A model generated the notes under the pieces. That model was not told where the DNA came from. It worked only from the letters and a program-made list of their open reading frames with translations, and did not search any database. A DNA stretch of 11,149 bases, from contig JBCCQY010000231.1 of the NCBI GenBank assembly GCA_039208735.1, positions 1 to 11,149 on the forward strand, read 5' to 3'. The stretch's first letter is position 1. Each line of letters opens with the position of its first letter. The position numbers and the translations under genes were made by a program. This DNA comes from Myxococcota bacterium (GTDB lineage: Bacteria; Myxococcota_A; UBA796; GCA-2862545). This document shows, piece by piece, positions 4,409 through 11,149 of the stretch.

Positions 4409-4775
4409 CTACGCAGAATCCTCCATCAACCGTACCGCAGCGGCATCGTGGTCGGCTCGAAAGCCAGCATCTTGACCACGGAACCGAGGACGGACCGTGC
4501 GATGTTCGAAGGGTTCCACCACCTCAGCATCTTCGAGGATCACGAAGTCCGCCTCGGCAACCGAGTGGGCCTCGGCCCAAGCCGCAATCTCCAGGCCTCG
4601 GTCAAAGTCGTCACGGACCGGCGTAGCCCCCACCACATTCACGGTGTTGGACTCATGCCACACAATCGGGATCCATCAATTCATGCTTGCGAGAGTCCAA
4701 CGAGCCTGTGGCGTACCACGCGTCCCAGGTGTCTTCCGTGGCAAGAACCCCATCGATATCTAGAAAAACGTACAT
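4409..4775 (-). pseudogene. disrupted HAD-family protein (Swiss Army Knife RNA-repair-like HAD type), in two frames
   Basis: 4775-4653 encodes MYVFLDIDGVL...MDPDCVA* (HAD motif I, DxDGVL). A different frame, 4663-4409, encodes VVGATP...RGLEIAAW...FVILED...GF, which matches the C-terminal half of this family. The central VxSSxWR segment is missing. Confidence 0.7.
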
Positions 4776-4906
4776 ACGAAATCCGTAACGGAACCCGTGT
4801 TGAAGCTCACCCTGAGATCCTCGATGCGAAACGCGAGACCCTCCTCGCATCGGTGCGTATGGGCGTACTGCACCAACTCCGCACGGGGCATGGCATGATG
4901 TCCGCC

Positions 4907-5380
4907 ATGACGACGCTCGATTGGAAGTTGGATCAAGAGCCGGACCAGCCCGTGGCTTTCGTCCGCCTCGAAGTGGCGCCCGGTGAGGCGGGAACGACCG
5001 TACCGAAGGTCCTTCACCGTCTACGGACGTGGGCCACACAACAGGGCCTTGCGGCCACCCTGCCCTATGGTCGCTTCGTGCAGTGGGACGGGGCGACCGG
5101 AAGTGGCATCATGGAGGTCGGGGTTTGCGTCGATGGCGATGCTCCAGGGCAGGACGACATCGTCCGAGGGCGACTACACGGCGGTCTTGGCGCGTGTGCG
5201 TGGCATGAAGGCGCGTACCACGCACTGCCTCAAACGTGGAAGACGCTGGACGCCCTCGTGAAGGCTCAAGGCCTTCAGGTAAGGGCACCCGGCTACGAGG
5301 TGTATACAAACTTCTTTGACGCCCCGCCCGAGGCAGAGTTGAGAACTCGTGTGGTGCTCCCGGTCGAACCAGCCGAGTGA
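4907..5380 (+). CDS. GyrI-like small-molecule-binding domain protein (about 157 aa)
   Basis: C-terminal part of ORF 4448..5380: QPVAFVR...MEVGVCV...LHGG..ACAWHEGAYHALPQTW..L...GL......EVY......RTRVVLPV. ATG 4895 and ATG 4898 are alternative starts. Confidence 0.85.
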   Translation: MTTLDWKLDQEPDQPVAFVRLEVAPGEAGTTVPKVLHRLRTWATQQGLAATLPYGRFVQWDGATGSGIMEVGVCVDGDAPGQDDIVRGRLHGGLGACAWHEGAYHALPQTWKTLDALVKAQGLQVRAPGYEVYTNFFDAPPEAELRTRVVLPVEPAE

Positions 5381-5393
5381 GTACAGCCTTGGT

Positions 5394-6638
5394 TCACGCA
5401 GCAAAGGACAAGGCGAGGCCCTCACAAACCGTCGTGAACGCCTCGCCACCACGCACTTTCTGGGGCTCAAAGCGGTCTTCGAAGCGAGCCTTGAGGAAGG
5501 GCAACTGAGAGGTTCCACCGGTGAGGAAGACCTCATCAATGTCGGTTTCTCGGCATCCGGCAAGCTCGAGCACCCTGTCGATCGCTGCCTCGTAGGCGTC
5601 GAGGACGGAACCACTGGCTTCGGCAAACGTCGTCCGTTCGACCGGTGCCTCCACATTGAGCCGCGGCGACTCATAGGCGTCGAACACAAAATCCACGGTT
5701 GAACGTTCGGAAAACCCACGTTTGGCACGTTCGATGGCGCGGGCCAAGGGATATCCCAAGTCGTCGAACACCAACTTGCGGACTCGCTCGATACCCACCG
5801 GATCCTCGGTCCGATCCTGAAGATCCTGGAGAAAGCGTTCCAGACGGGGCTCTCGCAGGCGATGCAAGTCGTACAACCGGCGGATTTGACGAAGCCACCC
5901 CGGCGACCAGGCCCGAGCATCCTCGGCTCCCCGAGGGACAAACCGACTGCCTCGACCCATGAAGTCGAGCACGAATGCATCGACGAAGACGCCATCGAGA
6001 ACGTCGCCTGCTTGCGCGACCCCGGATGTGCCGAGGACCCGTTCATCGGAGCGAGGTTGCTTGGGCCCCACTTTTAGAATCGCGAAGTCGGCCGTTCCTC
6101 CACCGAAGTCGCCGACCAACACGATGCGGTCCGCGTCCAGCGTTCGTTCGTAGCGAAGTGCCGCCGCCACCGGCTCGAGCTGAAGGACGGGTTCGGGTAA
6201 GCCGCTGATTCCGATCGCTTCTTTGAGGTTCGCCAACGCTCGCTCATGACGGTCCGCATCGGCATGAAACCGCACCGGCCGTCCGACGACGACCTTTTCG
6301 ATCGGTTCGCCGGCTACAGACTCGGCCCGTTCCGCGAGAAACGTCAAGTAGCGAGCCACGAGATCGACAAACCGCATCGTCTTGTGGCCGATGCGCGTGG
6401 GCGGAACGTCGTGGGGCAGGAATGCCTTCAGGGAGCGCAGGAACCGTCCCCGCAGGTCGCACTCGAGGTAGCGGTCAAACGCCTCGTTGCCGAACGTGAT
6501 GACCCCCGACAGGTCGGAGTGGATGACCGTTCGTTGCGTCCGCTCGCCAGGGACGAGTTCAAGGATTCGCGGCTGTCCGTCGTCGCGCAGGACCGCGACG
6601 GCAGAATTGGTGGTACCGAAGTCAATGCCCAACCGCAT
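5394..6638 (-). CDS. Hsp70-family protein, YegD-like (ATPase domain only, about 414 aa)
   Basis: MRLGIDFGTTNSAVA (phosphate 1), RFLRSLK, VVVGRPVRF, LEPVAAA, DFGGGTADF (phosphate 2), AIERAK, VFLTGGTS, VCEGLA. ATG 6638 has AAGGGG upstream. There is no substrate-binding domain. Confidence 0.9.
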   Translation of the reverse strand: MRLGIDFGTTNSAVAVLRDDGQPRILELVPGERTQRTVIHSDLSGVITFGNEAFDRYLECDLRGRFLRSLKAFLPHDVPPTRIGHKTMRFVDLVARYLTFLAERAESVAGEPIEKVVVGRPVRFHADADRHERALANLKEAIGISGLPEPVLQLEPVAAALRYERTLDADRIVLVGDFGGGTADFAILKVGPKQPRSDERVLGTSGVAQAGDVLDGVFVDAFVLDFMGRGSRFVPRGAEDARAWSPGWLRQIRRLYDLHRLREPRLERFLQDLQDRTEDPVGIERVRKLVFDDLGYPLARAIERAKRGFSERSTVDFVFDAYESPRLNVEAPVERTTFAEASGSVLDAYEAAIDRVLELAGCRETDIDEVFLTGGTSQLPFLKARFEDRFEPQKVRGGEAFTTVCEGLALSFAA

Positions 6639-6886
6639 GGAAGACCCCTTTCGTCGTACAGGACGTGTCATTGGACCGCTCTCATGGGCGGTCGCACTGT
6701 ACTTGTCGCGTAACGCGTCGCGTTCTCAAGAACAGGGGCCGGCCTTGCCTCGACCTTACGCGGTTCAAGGGTCGTCCGCCTTGCTCCGTTTCCGTAGGAT
6801 CTACGCAAGATGTGGGGGTGTACCTGCATTCCTAGGGGAAGGGGGCCCGGGCGTAGGCCTGGGCCACTCACCTAAGAGGAACCAAC

Positions 6887-8092
6887 ATGACGTCGATGCT
6901 CACGGTGCTGGTGCTGGCACTGCCCAGCCACGCCAAGGATGGCGCCCGTCAATCCGAGATCTGCAACTGCAAGGACGACGATGGTGACGGTCTCGTCGAC
7001 GAAAACCTGATCTGCAATTACGACCTCACGCTCGAGCTGACGGCCGATGATGCCTATGAAGTCTTCTTCGATGGCAGTTTCATGGGATTCGACACGGACT
7101 GGACGGATATCGAGACCTACACGCAATCGGTCCCCGCAGGCATCCACCATCTCGCAGTGTATGCAAAGGACCAGTACAACGTGGCCGCCGGCTTTCTTGC
7201 GGCAACGCATGTGGCGGGCCAGCAAGTCGATGTGACCGGCCCGAACAGCGCCTGGCGCGGTACCTCAACGCCCCCCACGGGCAACTGGACGACCACGACC
7301 GCGGGACTCAACCTTCCCGTTCCCGCCACGTGTACGGCGTGGGGCACGTATTGGCCCGCAGCACTCCTGGGTCAGGGCGCGAGCTGGATCTGGGATGCGG
7401 ACTGCGCCGCTCCCACCACCTACTCGGCCAACTGGTACGTACAGGAGGTGGAAGTCTGCATTGAAGCCTACGAAGCCTGTGACGGTGTCGACAACGACGG
7501 GGACGGAGACATCGATGAGGGCTACCCCGACACCGATGGAGACGGCATCGCGGACTGCGTGGACCGTGAGGAGTGCGACTGCCTCGACAACGATGGCGAT
7601 GGCGACGTCGATGAAGGGCTTCGCTGCGAATACCCGGTTGGGATGCGCATCACCGCCGACGATTCGTACGAGGCGTACTTCGACGGCGCAGCCTGGGGCT
7701 CCGATACCGACTGGACGGACATCGAAAGCTACAGCACCACGGCCACGGCAGGGACGCACCACATCGGGGTGTACGCCTGGGACACGTATGGCGTGGCGGC
7801 TGGGTTCATCGCTGCCGTGGCCGTCAACGGACAGGTCACCGACCTAACGGACACCACGACGAGCGACTGGCTCGGTTCGAGCACCTTCCCTGGCGGCACC
7901 TGGGCCACGTCAACCGCCAACCTCGCACCGACGGTCTCCGCGGCCCAGTGCGGAGCTTGGGGCACCTATTGGCCCGGGCCCCTGCTCGGCATGGGCGCAG
8001 GTTGGGTATGGGATGCAGATTGCGGCGCGCCGGCGACGTACCCCGAAAACTGGTACGTGCTCGAGTTTGACGTCTGCCCCGAAGCCCTCTGA
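6887..8092 (+). CDS. secreted protein with MopE-like/Ca-binding DxDGDG repeats and two lectin-like beta-sandwich modules (401 aa)
   Basis: AAGAGGA RBS and signal peptide MTSMLTVLVLALPSHA. Motifs EICNCKDDDGDGLVDE, EACDGVDNDGDGDIDE, DTDGDGIADCVD and EECDCLDNDGDGDVDE. Duplicated module TADD.YE..FDG...DTDWTDIE.Y...G.HH..VYA.D.Y.VAAGF.A...WGTYWP..LLG.GA.W.WDADC.AP.TY..NWYV. Confidence 0.85.
   Translation: MTSMLTVLVLALPSHAKDGARQSEICNCKDDDGDGLVDENLICNYDLTLELTADDAYEVFFDGSFMGFDTDWTDIETYTQSVPAGIHHLAVYAKDQYNVAAGFLAATHVAGQQVDVTGPNSAWRGTSTPPTGNWTTTTAGLNLPVPATCTAWGTYWPAALLGQGASWIWDADCAAPTTYSANWYVQEVEVCIEAYEACDGVDNDGDGDIDEGYPDTDGDGIADCVDREECDCLDNDGDGDVDEGLRCEYPVGMRITADDSYEAYFDGAAWGSDTDWTDIESYSTTATAGTHHIGVYAWDTYGVAAGFIAAVAVNGQVTDLTDTTTSDWLGSSTFPGGTWATSTANLAPTVSAAQCGAWGTYWPGPLLGMGAGWVWDADCGAPATYPENWYVLEFDVCPEAL
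7019..8077 (+). repeat. intragenic duplication of a module of about 147 aa (about 7019-7459 and about 7631-8077)
   Basis: The protein alignment is clear by eye. Shared DNA words include GACTGGACGGA(T/C)ATCGA and AACTGGTACGT. Confidence 0.88.
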
Positions 8093-8201
8093 ATTTCCGT
8101 CAGGGAGTGTAGGATCGGTGAAGGGTGTAGAGGTCGCCGTTCTGTCCTAGCCCAATAGGGGAAGAAACCCCTTGACCATCAGGGCAGGAATGCGAGCACC
8201 T

Positions 8202-10571
8202 CTACTCAATCTTCGCCAGGTCGGCGGCCACCAGGCTTCGGAACAGTCGGAAACCGACCGTATCGCCTCGCATTCCTGGTCCAACGGCGAAGCGAGCAGC
8301 CAGGTGAGCCCCCGTGGCGGTGAAGAACCAGCATCCGCCACGGACGACCTGCTCGGCGGCCGCATTCGAAGGCGAGGAAGGCAAGTAGAACTGAGTGGAA
8401 CACCACTCCCGCACGTTGCCCGCCATTCCCCTCACGCCATACACGCTGCAATCCACGCGAAAGTCGTGCACCGAGGCTGGCAACGGACGCCCCTCTCGAC
8501 TGGTTCGAACATTGGCGTACGGATGGACGAATTCGTCTCCCCAGGGGTAGGCCCGCCCATCCACTCCTCGAGCGGCCTTTTCCCACTCTTCTTCGGTGGG
8601 CAACCGCCACGGGCGGCCTGTACGATCCGCCTCCCACGCCGCATACGCACAGGCGCCCGCATAGTCGACGAGGAAGACCGGCCAGTCCGACTGCCACACG
8701 TCCCCATCGGCATCTGCGACAAGAGTGAAGTGGCCCTGTGCATCCCGCGCGTAGCACAACGGTCCTGGTTGATCCGGACGGGCGCTGCGTTCTCGCGGAG
8801 CCGCCTGCAAGGCCTCCGTTTCTCGGCCTTGGTCGACCAAATCATCCAGGAATGCGATGTACTCCGCGTGCGTGACGGGAAAGCGGCGTACGATAAACGC
8901 ATCGACCGACACGAGGCCCCCGGGCAACGCCTGGAGCATGGGCGATTGTGTGCCTCGAAAGAACGGACCTGCAGGGACGTAACAGTCGTCGGGACCCATC
9001 GCGTCCGGCTGAAGCAGCGTCACCGGAGGCCCTTGCCACCTGTGATTCCTCGGGATCCAGAGGGGCACGCGAATGGGTGGAGTACTCTGCAATTCGACGA
9101 GATAGCGCCCCATGTCGAGCGGCTGTTCGATCGGAGTGACGCCGATCGAACGGGGAGCGCGAGGTTCAAGCACTCGATCCCGCTTTTCGTACCGGTACAG
9201 CGTTGCGGGCACGGCGTGAGGCGTCGTGGCGAGGTGGAGGGCACCGCGACCTTCGAGGTAGACCCGGTGGGCTCCGCGATCGACATGGCGCAATTCGGCC
9301 TCGGCTTCGGCCACCGCGGCCGCATCGCCTCGGGCCTCCGCATCCGCGTGCATCGCGTGCCAGTGCGCGGCCAAGGCCTCCAGGACCTCGGCACACGAGC
9401 TATCGTGGGTGAGCGCGCCGTGCAGCGTCTGAAGGCGTTCCCGACGCAGCGCATCGGCCCGGTCGACATCGGCCGCAAGCTCGGTCGAGCGACGCCACAA
9501 CGGCGAGCGCTCGGCGACGGGAGCCCACGTCGGAAGCGCCGCCCCTTGCCGACGCAGCTCGACCCGAGTGGACTCAATCCTTATCCGGAGCGACGTTTCT
9601 TCCTTACGCAACGCGGCAGCCCGAGCCACTTGCCGCAATGCAAGCTCGCGTTGGGCCTCTCCATCGAGCCAGGCGCCAAGTACGCGAGCGACTTCGCTGG
9701 CCGCCGTGGGGCGGTCCCGTGGATCGGCGGCGAGGGCCCGGTCGACAAGCTCCCGCAGCGTCTCAGGCCCATCGGTACACGGGGGAATCTCGCCCCGGGC
9801 GACCCGCACCATCGCTTCGCGGGGCGACCGACGATCGAACAGCGGTCGGCCATGAAGCAACTCAAAGAGCACGGCCCCCAACGCAAAGACGTCGGATGCG
9901 GGGGTTGCCACCTCCCCGCGCGCCTGCTCGGGCGAGAAGTAGCCCGGGGTACCGGCCACGCTGCCCAACCGCGTGTGGCCCTCGCGCACGGCCAGGACGG
10001 CGGACTCAGTCGCTCGAAACAAGCCCCAATCCAGCACGAACACCGTACCGAAGGGTCCCACCATGATGTTCGCAGGCTTGAGATCGCGGTGCAGCACCCC
10101 TCGTTCATGGGCGTAGCTCACCGCATCCACAGCTCGCCGAAAGACCTCAACCACCCTTCGCAGTCCCGCTTGCGTGGCTGGGATCTCGCGCGCCACTTCG
10201 CCAAGCGTTCGGCCCCGGACCACCGCCATCGTGAACCAAGGGCGACCGTCCGAGAGTTGGCCAATCTCGTGGATCGGGACGATGCCAGGGTGGACCAGCT
10301 GGGCCGTAGCCCGAGCCTCCCGAAGGAACCGCTCGCGCACGTTGGGATCCGCGGCGAGTTCGGCCCGCAGCACCTTCATCGCAACCCGCCGCCCGAGTTG
10401 CGTGTCCTCCGCCTCCCAAACCTCTGCGGTGCCGCCCTCACCGAGCAGATGCACCCGGCGCAGGTGGTCTGCGCCTTCGGTTGCGCTTTCCACCAGAGCG
10501 ACCAATTCCGCGACCCCTTCGGGATCCAACCCGTACCGAGCTGCAAGTTCGAGGACCGCATCGTCCAGCAA
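8202..10571 (-). CDS. Hanks-type Ser/Thr protein kinase fused to a helical linker, a PEGA-like segment and an FGE-sulfatase (SUMF1/EgtB/PvdO-type) domain
   Basis: Kinase motifs: LGEGGTAEV, VAMK, RFLREA, HRDLKPAN, DWG, GTPGYFSPEQ, SDVFALG. FGE motifs: VPAGPF, FPVTHAEY, WPV, RLPTEEEWEKAARG, YPWG, MAGNVREW, VVRGG.W, GFR. Preferred start is TTG 10571 (GGAGG 5 nt upstream, 789 aa). The ORF-track ATG at 10640 is the alternative. Confidence 0.92.
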   Translation of the reverse strand: MLDDAVLELAARYGLDPEGVAELVALVESATEGADHLRRVHLLGEGGTAEVWEAEDTQLGRRVAMKVLRAELAADPNVRERFLREARATAQLVHPGIVPIHEIGQLSDGRPWFTMAVVRGRTLGEVAREIPATQAGLRRVVEVFRRAVDAVSYAHERGVLHRDLKPANIMVGPFGTVFVLDWGLFRATESAVLAVREGHTRLGSVAGTPGYFSPEQARGEVATPASDVFALGAVLFELLHGRPLFDRRSPREAMVRVARGEIPPCTDGPETLRELVDRALAADPRDRPTAASEVARVLGAWLDGEAQRELALRQVARAAALRKEETSLRIRIESTRVELRRQGAALPTWAPVAERSPLWRRSTELAADVDRADALRRERLQTLHGALTHDSSCAEVLEALAAHWHAMHADAEARGDAAAVAEAEAELRHVDRGAHRVYLEGRGALHLATTPHAVPATLYRYEKRDRVLEPRAPRSIGVTPIEQPLDMGRYLVELQSTPPIRVPLWIPRNHRWQGPPVTLLQPDAMGPDDCYVPAGPFFRGTQSPMLQALPGGLVSVDAFIVRRFPVTHAEYIAFLDDLVDQGRETEALQAAPRERSARPDQPGPLCYARDAQGHFTLVADADGDVWQSDWPVFLVDYAGACAYAAWEADRTGRPWRLPTEEEWEKAARGVDGRAYPWGDEFVHPYANVRTSREGRPLPASVHDFRVDCSVYGVRGMAGNVREWCSTQFYLPSSPSNAAAEQVVRGGCWFFTATGAHLAARFAVGPGMRGDTVGFRLFRSLVAADLAKIE

Positions 10572-10581
10572 GGAGGCCTCC
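10572..10581. promoter_or_regulatory. palindromic candidate bidirectional ribosome-binding site GGAGGCCTCC
   Basis: The + strand reads aaGGAGGcctcc-GTG(10582). The - strand reads cacGGAGGcctcc-TTG(10571). Both start codons are in frame with their genes. Confidence 0.6.
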
Positions 10582-11149
10582 GTGGGCTGCCATGAAGTGT
10601 ATGTGGTGTTGGCACAAGGTTCGGGATCCGAGGTCCGCATGCGGCCCGGAGACCTCGTAGGCCGCCTTCGTTCCGCCGACTTACGAATCGATGATCCACG
10701 CGTCAGCGAAGCCCACGCCTACGTGAGCCTTCGCGAGGGTGCACTGCGCCTGTTGGCCCTTCGGGGCGGGCTGGCGGTCGATGGCCGGCTGTTGCGTGAG
10801 GTGAGCCTCACCCAAGGACAGCGGATCCTCCTCGCCAAAGGCCCCCCCCCCGTCGAACTCACGGTTCGGGATGTGGTGCACCCCCAAGTGATGCTGGCCC
10901 TCCGCGGAGGCGGATTTGACGATGAAGTGCTTACCGGCCGCTGCCTCTCCATCCTCGGCCCGGCTCCGCTCTCGCTTGTCGAGGGCTACCGGCCGACGGC
11001 CCACGCCGTACTGTGGACCAACGGCGAAGGTTGGATGATCCGACTCGGCGACGAGGCACCTCGAACGCTGGTTACGGGCCTGGTCCTGCCGGTGGCAAAC
11101 GCCCAAGTCGAAGTGGTCGAGGTGGCACTTCGAAAGGCCCACACCACGC
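10582..11149 (+). CDS. FHA-domain protein, 3'-truncated by the window edge (not in the ORF track)
   Basis: Manual translation is open to the window end: MGCHEVYVVLAQGSGSEVRMRPGDLVGRLRSADLRIDDPRVSEAHAYVSLREGALRLLALRGGLAVDGRLLREVSLTQGQRILLAKGPPPVELTVRDVVHPQVMLALRGGGFDDEVLTGRCLSILGPAPLSLVEGYRPTAHAVLWTNGEGWMIRLGDEAPRTLVTG... It has the FHA signature GR...D..VS..HA. AAGGAGG lies at 10570-10576. ATG 10639 is an alternative start. Confidence 0.85.
   Translation, partial: MGCHEVYVVLAQGSGSEVRMRPGDLVGRLRSADLRIDDPRVSEAHAYVSLREGALRLLALRGGLAVDGRLLREVSLTQGQRILLAKGPPPVELTVRDVVHPQVMLALRGGGFDDEVLTGRCLSILGPAPLSLVEGYRPTAHAVLWTNGEGWMIRLGDEAPRTLVTGLVLPVANAQVEVVEVALRKAHTT

Follow-up and report, generated by a model that had tools for sequence, protein, structure and literature searches.

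A predicted kinase promoter within the opening codons of a divergent FHA/winged-helix regulator gene in a clade of Myxococcota

How can two divergent genes both be expressed when hardly any DNA lies between them? The question is raised by contig JBCCQY010000231.1 of a Myxococcota bacterium (assembly GCA_039208735.1, 9.4 Mb, 64% GC; genome code G000), which we analyzed over its whole length of 11,149 bp and refer to as the window. Here a Ser/Thr kinase gene and a gene for an FHA-domain protein are adjacent on opposite strands and head to head, the arrangement with which the definition of a divergent excludon begins. Read directly in the sequence, the junction consists of CAA (10569–10571), the 10-bp palindrome GGAGGCCTCC (10572–10581), and GTG (10582–10584): TTG 10571 on the reverse strand is in frame with an open reading frame (ORF) carrying Pkinase and FGE-sulfatase domains, and GTG 10582 on the forward strand is in frame with the FHA ORF, which runs past the contig end. 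A first-pass annotation had proposed that the palindrome may serve both genes as their Shine-Dalgarno (SD) sequence, that each promoter lies inside the partner gene, and that the pair forms an excludon-like toggle. Comparison with related genomes points to two crowded ribosome-binding sites and to a probable kinase promoter embedded in the first codons of the neighbor.

In a kinase search of 154 genomes of the order, G002, G084, G025, G083, and G081 came out as carrying close orthologues whose neighboring FHA gene is divergent, and G022 as carrying a more distant divergent pair; an FHA profile search of the same genomes placed the same five on top, as expected, given that those five had built the profile. 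The closest relatives are metagenome-assembled genomes labelled Myxococcota or Myxococcales, some carrying other labels. In a tree of 33 kinase domains, from which 10 of 43 rows lacking the anchor motif had been dropped (including the close relative L160), the window and its five orthologues form one clade (98/99) with end branches of 0.34–0.69 changes per column.

The orthologue N-termini agree with both in-frame starts at the palindrome. G002 has CAT-10 bp-ATG, that is, ATG/ATG at exactly the start positions of the window. On the kinase side, M1, A10, and G14 are invariant in 7/7 aligned orthologues, and a gene caller relying on coding score alone also chooses 10571; a second kinase ATG four codons upstream in G002 speaks against this assignment. 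The FHA protein search gave 23 matches, of which four are the seeds and one is truncated; 17 new ones were motif-anchored, 16 of which begin at the offset of the window and one a residue shorter, and nine metagenomic relatives begin M-G/S-x-H/D-E-V/M-Y, like V-G-C-H-E-V-Y in the window (these are starts predicted by gene callers). At its N-terminus, the window protein also agrees in register with P0016 from the first residue onward (63% identity). Two alternative starts raised in the first-pass annotation did not hold up: in G002, G084, and G081, in-frame stops precede the kinase G-x-D-P-E motif by 16–23 codons and leave no extension to ATG 10640, and the FHA start ATG 10639 is not conserved in the orthologues and would delete the first two FHA strands. 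Both of these ATGs belong to a second palindrome, CCGCATGCGG (10635–10644), with ATG 10639 on the forward and ATG 10640 on the reverse strand, each in frame with one gene; this palindrome is not conserved in the orthologues.

Start signals were surveyed with a home-made dicodon gene caller (7642 genes), whose start calls are predictions; the starts tested were chosen without an SD term. GGAG, GAGG, or AGGA lies 3–11 nt upstream of 131 of 245 starts at divergent junctions, and TAnnnT ends 6 nt before the start in 7.8% of these 245, against 0.18% in the background, which is the geometry of a leaderless mRNA. Since both enrichments are seen at starts picked without regard to the SD, this genome uses SDs, and TAnnnT is its -10 motif. 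Genome-wide, TAnnnT ends at the same 6-nt distance in 144 of the 1876 starts without a 4-nt SD, a leaderless-type class; judged from search results alone, no paper on leaderless mRNAs in this phylum was found.

On the kinase strand, TAnnnT is found 23–29 nt before the start in all six genomes of the clade, always over the same FHA codons 5–7 (TACACT once, TAGGAT three times, and TACGAT twice). It is the best site by position weight matrix within 350 nt in five of them and the second best in G002. The TA of the box derives from an FHA Tyr that is present in 6/6 clade members and 17/17 motif-anchored further relatives, but in 18/84 loci family-wide. Its final T corresponds to the third base of FHA codon 5, which is A in 6/6 genomes though the residue encoded is Glu, Thr, or Ala; third-position A makes up 0.7–3.1% in the gene body of the five orthologues and 14.7% in the window. 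Across 932 ungapped codon columns (178 FHA and 754 kinase), FHA codon 5 is the only one to reach 6/6 A or T at the third base, the next best reaching 4. This wobble-base pattern should be read as strong support for an embedded -10 box and not as a p-value, because the six sequences are related. The kinase transcript would then start near 10589, and its short leader would be antisense to the FHA SD core, the FHA start codon, and the first codons; across the six genomes, the predicted leader covers 5–11 nt of FHA coding sequence and the overlap on the kinase side amounts to 17–23 nt.

A scan for the sigma-70 consensus gave 0 sites, as expected for a genome with no visible -35. An ECF (extracytoplasmic function)-like reading of GAAC/CGTC was rejected: the spacing is wrong, and the motif is dictated by Val-Phe and Asp codons. 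FHA codon 23 (window 10648–10650) is GGA (Gly) in four of the six genomes; it lies about 47 nt upstream of the -10 box predicted for the kinase and is possibly part of an upstream element.

The spacer between the two genes measures 10 bp in the window and in G002, 9 bp in G084 and G083, 15 bp in G025, and 14 bp in G081, a gap of 9–15 bp kept in 6/6 genomes from three genera; G022 has 43 bp. By our own calls with an SD-aware start model, none of the 1174 divergent pairs has a shorter non-overlapping spacer than the window pair (for the 589 pairs whose starts are confident, the median is 126 bp), and among 27 pairs at -12 to 30 bp the window pair is the only one with an SD motif of at least 5 nt on both strands. 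Five other predicted divergent pairs (two on C39 and one each on C5, C30, and C15) share CATG, a 2-bp overlap of their predicted start codons.

No 16S rRNA gene is assembled in this genome, so that duplex energies were computed with the standard anti-SD core, and SD use is shown by the start-site statistics above instead. The FHA-side duplex of the window (-10.6 kcal/mol) beats 94% of 847 unambiguous starts, and the kinase-side duplex (-9.5 kcal/mol) beats 80%. Both sides reach -5.6 kcal/mol or better in four of the six genomes, the FHA/kinase values being -9.5/-5.6 in G002, -8.6/-5.6 in G084, and -5.8/-10.9 kcal/mol in G025. Opposite a real SD start, a reverse-strand SD of -5.6 kcal/mol arises by chance in 9–12% of cases and one of -9.4 kcal/mol in about 0.6% (1500 of 3453 SD-bearing starts tested). 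Because reverse SDs that strong are rare by chance, we count the two-sided SD, on sequence evidence, as selected in part of the clade; the symmetry is not. The 10-mer itself is not enriched, with 24 copies in the genome against 24–30 expected under Markov orders 2–5, one of them flanked by start codons on both strands, and a perfect palindrome occurs in only one of the six clade genomes, the window itself. As the palindrome is perfect in 1/6 and usable SD halves are present in 4/6, the spacer is a pair of squeezed ribosome-binding sites and not a symmetric device, and its perfect form in the window is probably a by-product of fitting two SDs into a 10-bp space. The first-pass annotation had suggested testing if a gap of about 10 bp with GGAGG/CCTCC symmetry is conserved; the gap survives this comparison and the symmetry does not, and a double SD role stands, above chance, for four of the six genomes. 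A hairpin role of the palindrome was rejected, as neither the predicted leaders nor the start regions share a fold.

Upstream of the FHA start, no leaderless-type -10 box was seen in any of the six genomes, nor does any of the six spacers hold a shared or back-to-back -10 as a bidirectional promoter would. By the TAnnnT criterion the FHA gene is not leaderless; should its SD be in use, its promoter must be located on the far side of the kinase start. A promoter inside the partner gene is thus supported for the kinase; on the FHA strand none was found.

Table 1. Features at the kinase/FHA junction of the window, with a neighboring gene in its relatives
Feature	Position	Strand	Basis
Ser/Thr kinase gene, 789 aa from TTG 10571	8202–10571	-	Pfam PF00069, PF03781; conserved M1/A10/G14
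FHA/beta-domain/OmpR-type winged-helix regulator (predicted), 5' part, 189 codons	10582–11149	+	Pfam FHA
Intergenic spacer GGAGGCCTCC, 10 bp, contains both SDs	10572–10581	.	Sequence, orthologue comparison
SD of FHA gene, AAGGAGG, 5 nt before GTG	10570–10576	+	Duplex energy
SD of kinase gene, GGAGG, 5 nt before TTG	10577–10581	-	Duplex energy
Predicted kinase -10 box TACACT, over FHA codons 5–7, 24 nt before kinase start	10596–10601	-	6/6 orthologues
Predicted kinase 5' untranslated region, 17–18 nt, transcription start about 10588–10589	10572–10589	-	-10 position and the genome's leaderless-type 6-nt peak
Lipoprotein-like gene copies in relatives	L075 5947–6678; L076 5935–6648; L077 5952–6719; L078 5897–6643		

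The kinase has a short helical N-terminus, a Hanks-type kinase domain (PF00069, E 1.7e-36), and a C-terminal FGE-sulfatase-like domain (PF03781 also matched); the Gly-rich loop, VAxK, HRDLKPxN, and DxG are invariant in 7/7 orthologues, as in Hanks-type Ser/Thr kinases. Genome-wide, tblastn with the kinase gave 169 matches, about ten long ones of which extend to the FGE-like end. Full-length orthologues of the partner are about 300 aa long, and 68/68 homologues keep the Gly-Arg and Ser-x-x-His residues of the FHA domain unchanged. A profile of these 68 matches the DNA-binding domain of AdeR (E 0.0074), and Trans_reg_C is matched by 11 of them (E up to 0.1). In the AlphaFold model of the G002 orthologue (predicted local distance difference test score 92), the FHA domain comes first, followed by a middle domain that is all-beta and, at the C-terminus, by a winged helix. 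This last domain aligns with GlnR (Z 9.5, root mean square deviation 2.7, 94 residues aligned) and with ArlR, CadC, PrrA, CssR, TcpP, VanR, and PmrA (Z 8.4–8.9, the first four at 8.6–8.9). It should be noted that the winged helix is seen in the G002 model, the window copy being cut before that domain. The partner is accordingly predicted to be a transcription regulator with an FHA domain and an OmpR-type winged helix (FHA-wHTH), so that the pair, by way of the G002 orthologue, includes the DNA-binding regulator typical of face-to-face pairs; the phospho-reader proposed at first pass keeps its FHA domain and is better described in these terms.

To place the clade within its family, 123 homologous FHA-wHTH loci were counted (duplicates included; flanks of 1.5–5 kb). 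A kinase lies directly downstream on the same strand in 63 and is divergent in 19, whereas 39 have neither arrangement and two are at an edge; that 63 of the 123 are tandem suggests that regulator and kinase would normally be expressed together. Among 84 loci with a callable start, 29 have a strict TAnnnT 5–9 nt upstream and 15 a 4-nt SD. In 12 more distant divergent pairs, with spacers of 25–161 bp (starts picked by us), the FHA -10 box sits within the spacer in 11, at 5–9 nt from the ATG, and the kinase -10 box does so in 10. The clade of the window therefore departs from its relatives in being SD-led, with a displaced promoter. The change likely ran from leaderless back-to-back to SD-led embedded promoters; we hold this at likely because the tree leaves the sister group ambiguous. 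A putative origin by deletion from a 38-bp spacer like that of L143 would fit the distances, G022 and L143 being ambiguous in the tree. Both partner genes of G022 contain weak TAnnnT candidates, at 87 and 72 nt.

A second kinase/FHA family, represented in the genome of the window by C2, contains similar junctions. In C2 53091/53112 (L185, L188), L189, and L190 the two genes are divergent, with spacers of 17–29 bp. The C2 pair (20- or 29-bp spacer) has a kinase-strand TATGCT at FHA nt 14–19 and its G001 orthologue has TACACT at the same place; G088 lacks the box, which is thus present in two of three close members. On the FHA strand, TAnnnT occurs 33–34 nt upstream, inside the kinase gene, in G001 and G088 and not in C2 (again two of three). 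Of the 30 loci of this family, four are divergent from a kinase, and many others look leaderless. In L188 and L189 a kinase is also found downstream of the FHA gene.

With moderate confidence, we read the locus as a face-to-face kinase/regulator pair in which the kinase promoter occupies regulator codons 5–7 and the two genes damp each other rather than switching each other off. The kinase mRNA would begin near 10589 and the regulator mRNA, provided that its SD is in use, on the far side of the kinase start codon, so that the 5' ends would share at least about 20 nt, a stretch that takes in both SDs. Once at the kinase promoter, RNA polymerase would occupy the start region of the regulator, and transcription of the regulator would run through the kinase promoter. 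Occlusion or sitting-duck interference, together with short antisense pairing, could then set the kinase:regulator ratio, probably as part of a feedback loop that, on the analogy of PknH-EmbR, would include phosphorylation of the regulator by the kinase.

Several points weigh against mutual damping. No TAnnnT was found on the FHA strand within 300 nt upstream in any of the six genomes, and a recurrent weak site about 300–340 nt upstream was rejected, being dictated by an I-V-P motif of the kinase. In G083 and G081, the SD on the FHA side is no stronger than background. Where the FHA-wHTH gene of G083 (L035/L077) should start, there is neither ATG nor GTG nor TTG; we infer a CTG start, 9 bp from the kinase ATG, though the public record begins 26 residues earlier. 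The wobble-base signal comes from six related DNA sequences of three genera. Neither a -35 element nor a conserved operator repeat was seen at the six junctions, which share no repeat that could mark an operator of the regulator at the overlap; a 10-nt direct repeat of the window (10518 and 10620) is not shared by the orthologues and was rejected as an operator. Binding of the kinase to the neighboring FHA-wHTH protein, and phosphorylation of that protein, are predictions from synteny and analogy. Finally, bidirectional promoters of Escherichia coli at low basal activity showed no interference unless one side was activated (PMC12825309). Because weak promoters of this kind gave no interference, the damping may be negligible.

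The main rival to mutual damping is compaction without regulation, which we consider possible but unlikely. An ancestral deletion would have removed the intergenic promoter, the kinase promoter would have survived in the codons of the neighbor, and both SDs would have been kept for translation only, the overlap having no meaningful effect on expression. What is conserved agrees with this, since it comprises the needs of each gene (the -10 box and the SDs) and not the symmetry; the kinase-side overlap is short, and weak promoters need not interfere (PMC12825309). Moreover, embedded antisense -10 boxes occur in unrelated genes of this genome whose divergent junctions are also short: TAnnnT lies antisense at nt 13–17 of the coding sequence in 4 of 60 genes with spacers up to 35 bp, against 67 of 6944 others (window excluded; positions chosen post hoc; p 0.003). 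Because the box is commoner at short-spacer genes, the embedded geometry is also a general consequence of short gaps. Yet the gap has been held at 9–15 bp over a clade with several changes per site in total, although fixed distances from -10 box to SD to start could themselves explain this constancy, and a similar layout recurs in the second kinase/FHA family.

A bistable toggle, in which face-to-face transcription and antisense pairing would give a kinase-on or a regulator-on state, appears improbable to us. The geometry does force an overlap across both SDs if both are used, the perfect duplex over the predicted kinase leader alone amounts to -36 to -53 kcal/mol, one partner is a predicted DNA-binding regulator, and bistability has been modelled for the 53-bp overlap of scbA/scbR (PMC3134472). 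Against this, most of the distant divergent pairs have non-overlapping back-to-back -10 boxes, so that the family normally seems co-expressed, and the two-sided SD is absent in two of the six genomes. The two mRNAs are separate molecules, and a palindrome in the DNA does not, on its own, make ribosomes compete. With about half of the homologous loci in tandem (duplicates included), we regard the toggle as less likely than mutual damping.

A bolder version, to which we would give similarly little credence, is that such modules moved at least twice from leaderless back-to-back to SD-led face-to-face promoters, dual-coded in codons 5–7 of the partner, and so formed an 80-bp self-wired mutual-exclusion switch. 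If true, this would be a natural minimal toggle between a phosphorylation-activated regulator and its own kinase, acting on both transcription and translation with no dedicated regulatory DNA.

That the shared-SD picture is an annotation accident, with one start misassigned (e.g., FHA GTG 10597 or ATG 10639, or kinase ATG 10640), is very improbable given the ATG/ATG of G002, the offset and N-terminal pattern of the relatives, and in-frame stops in three of the five other tight orthologues, even though the coding-score-only caller favored GTG 10597 for the FHA gene, GAGG sits 5 nt upstream of ATG 10639, and the start-model margins are small (1.8 and 1.3).

Around the pair, a gene of about 240–255 aa with, by eye, a lipoprotein-like N-terminus lies 3' of the FHA-wHTH gene in four of the five relatives (Table 1); three tested copies had no Pfam match, and it is a candidate third member of the kinase/regulator module. 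On the other side, a conserved non-contiguous operon across the kinase was rejected, as the five relatives differ in which genes lie past the kinase 3' end and in how these are oriented. Window 6887–8092 (+) encodes a protein of 401 aa in which Cys/Asp-rich motifs are repeated and which has no Pfam or NCBIfam match; by eye, its homologue (L075 1161–2306) adjoins the G002 kinase and is co-directional there and convergent in the window. An 807-aa ORF at 8172–10595 (+) runs antisense to the kinase and in its frame; it is without a Pfam match and was set aside as a GC-rich shadow. At 4409–5039 (-), two short ORFs look, by eye, like a single HAD-like protein broken in two by a frame change, and they overlap the 5' part of a GyrI-like ORF on the forward strand. 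Rfam gave 0 matches in 8000–11149, and no NCBIfam match exceeded its curated cut-off; for 6000–11149 no RNA run was listed, which carries no information on expression.

The junction is a compact natural case of regulatory and coding information on the same bases, with one synonymous position apparently held by the neighbor's promoter across a diverged clade. Its SDs and starts fit into 16 bp, which makes it a very small face-to-face arrangement in which to ask if short 5' overlaps regulate anything, and it draws attention to the FHA/winged-helix regulators that are paired with Ser/Thr kinases in Myxococcota, a large family that has apparently received little study and mostly has leaderless-type promoters. 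Should it prove to be merely compaction, it is still a caution for gene callers and for the recoding of N-terminal codons.

Our literature search returned no paper on a shared, palindromic, or bidirectional SD or ribosome-binding site, most subscription papers being outside its reach; judged from search results alone, with incomplete coverage, it also returned nothing on such a layout or protein family in myxobacteria, and the available parts of PMC2716372 and PMC2478687 do not address either. Among characterized systems, the closest in layout is scbA/scbR of Streptomyces coelicolor, where the promoters are face to face, the 5' ends overlap by 53 bp, and interference and antisense effects have been proposed (PMC3134472). 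As there, genes on opposite strands have overlapping 5' ends (predicted here), and one partner is a regulator while the other sets its signal. For scbA/scbR, however, promoters and operators have been mapped and the signal is a butyrolactone, whereas here the partner is a Ser/Thr kinase and one -10 box has been located by prediction; the starts are 9–15 bp apart, and that box is dual-coded in the codons of the partner. The Ecl18kI genes are likewise divergent with facing promoters (here predicted), one start point falling outside the intergenic region and across from the partner's initiation codon, and are regulated by promoter competition, with an intergenic operator bound by the methyltransferase (PMC2760811); our locus has no intergenic room for an operator, both SDs filling the gap. 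Bidirectional promoters sharing a symmetric -10 (PMC12825309) resemble some of the distant pairs (e.g., L143 and L137, with overlapping or back-to-back boxes), but the only -10 box located in the clade of the window lies inside the partner and points back across the gap, a convergent geometry.

In its proteins, the pair recalls PknH-EmbR of Mycobacterium tuberculosis, in which a Ser/Thr kinase phosphorylates a regulator with FHA and OmpR-type DNA-binding domains (PMC4601284), the same combination predicted here. EmbR is a SARP protein of the order wHTH-BTAD-FHA, whereas the present regulator has FHA, an all-beta middle, and the wHTH last; with no BTAD in the model and the domain order reversed, it falls outside the SARP definition of an N-terminal wHTH followed by a helical BTAD. 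Unlike PknH, the kinase has an FGE-like C-terminal domain. Divergent excludons, of which ExcludonFinder reports 16 pairs in E. coli and 10 in Staphylococcus aureus, have a mean intergenic distance of 95–118 nt (PMC12288877); their definition calls for a transcript overlap that has been measured and for expression made mutually exclusive by interference or RNase III cleavage. The present pairs share with them neighboring divergent genes and overlapping 5' untranslated regions, here predicted from the -10 box and the SDs, and differ in a gap of 9–15 bp and in being known from sequence. Face-to-face promoters and divergent excludons are thus already familiar; what is new here is a predicted kinase -10 box in codons 5–7 of the partner gene, with a rare third-position A.

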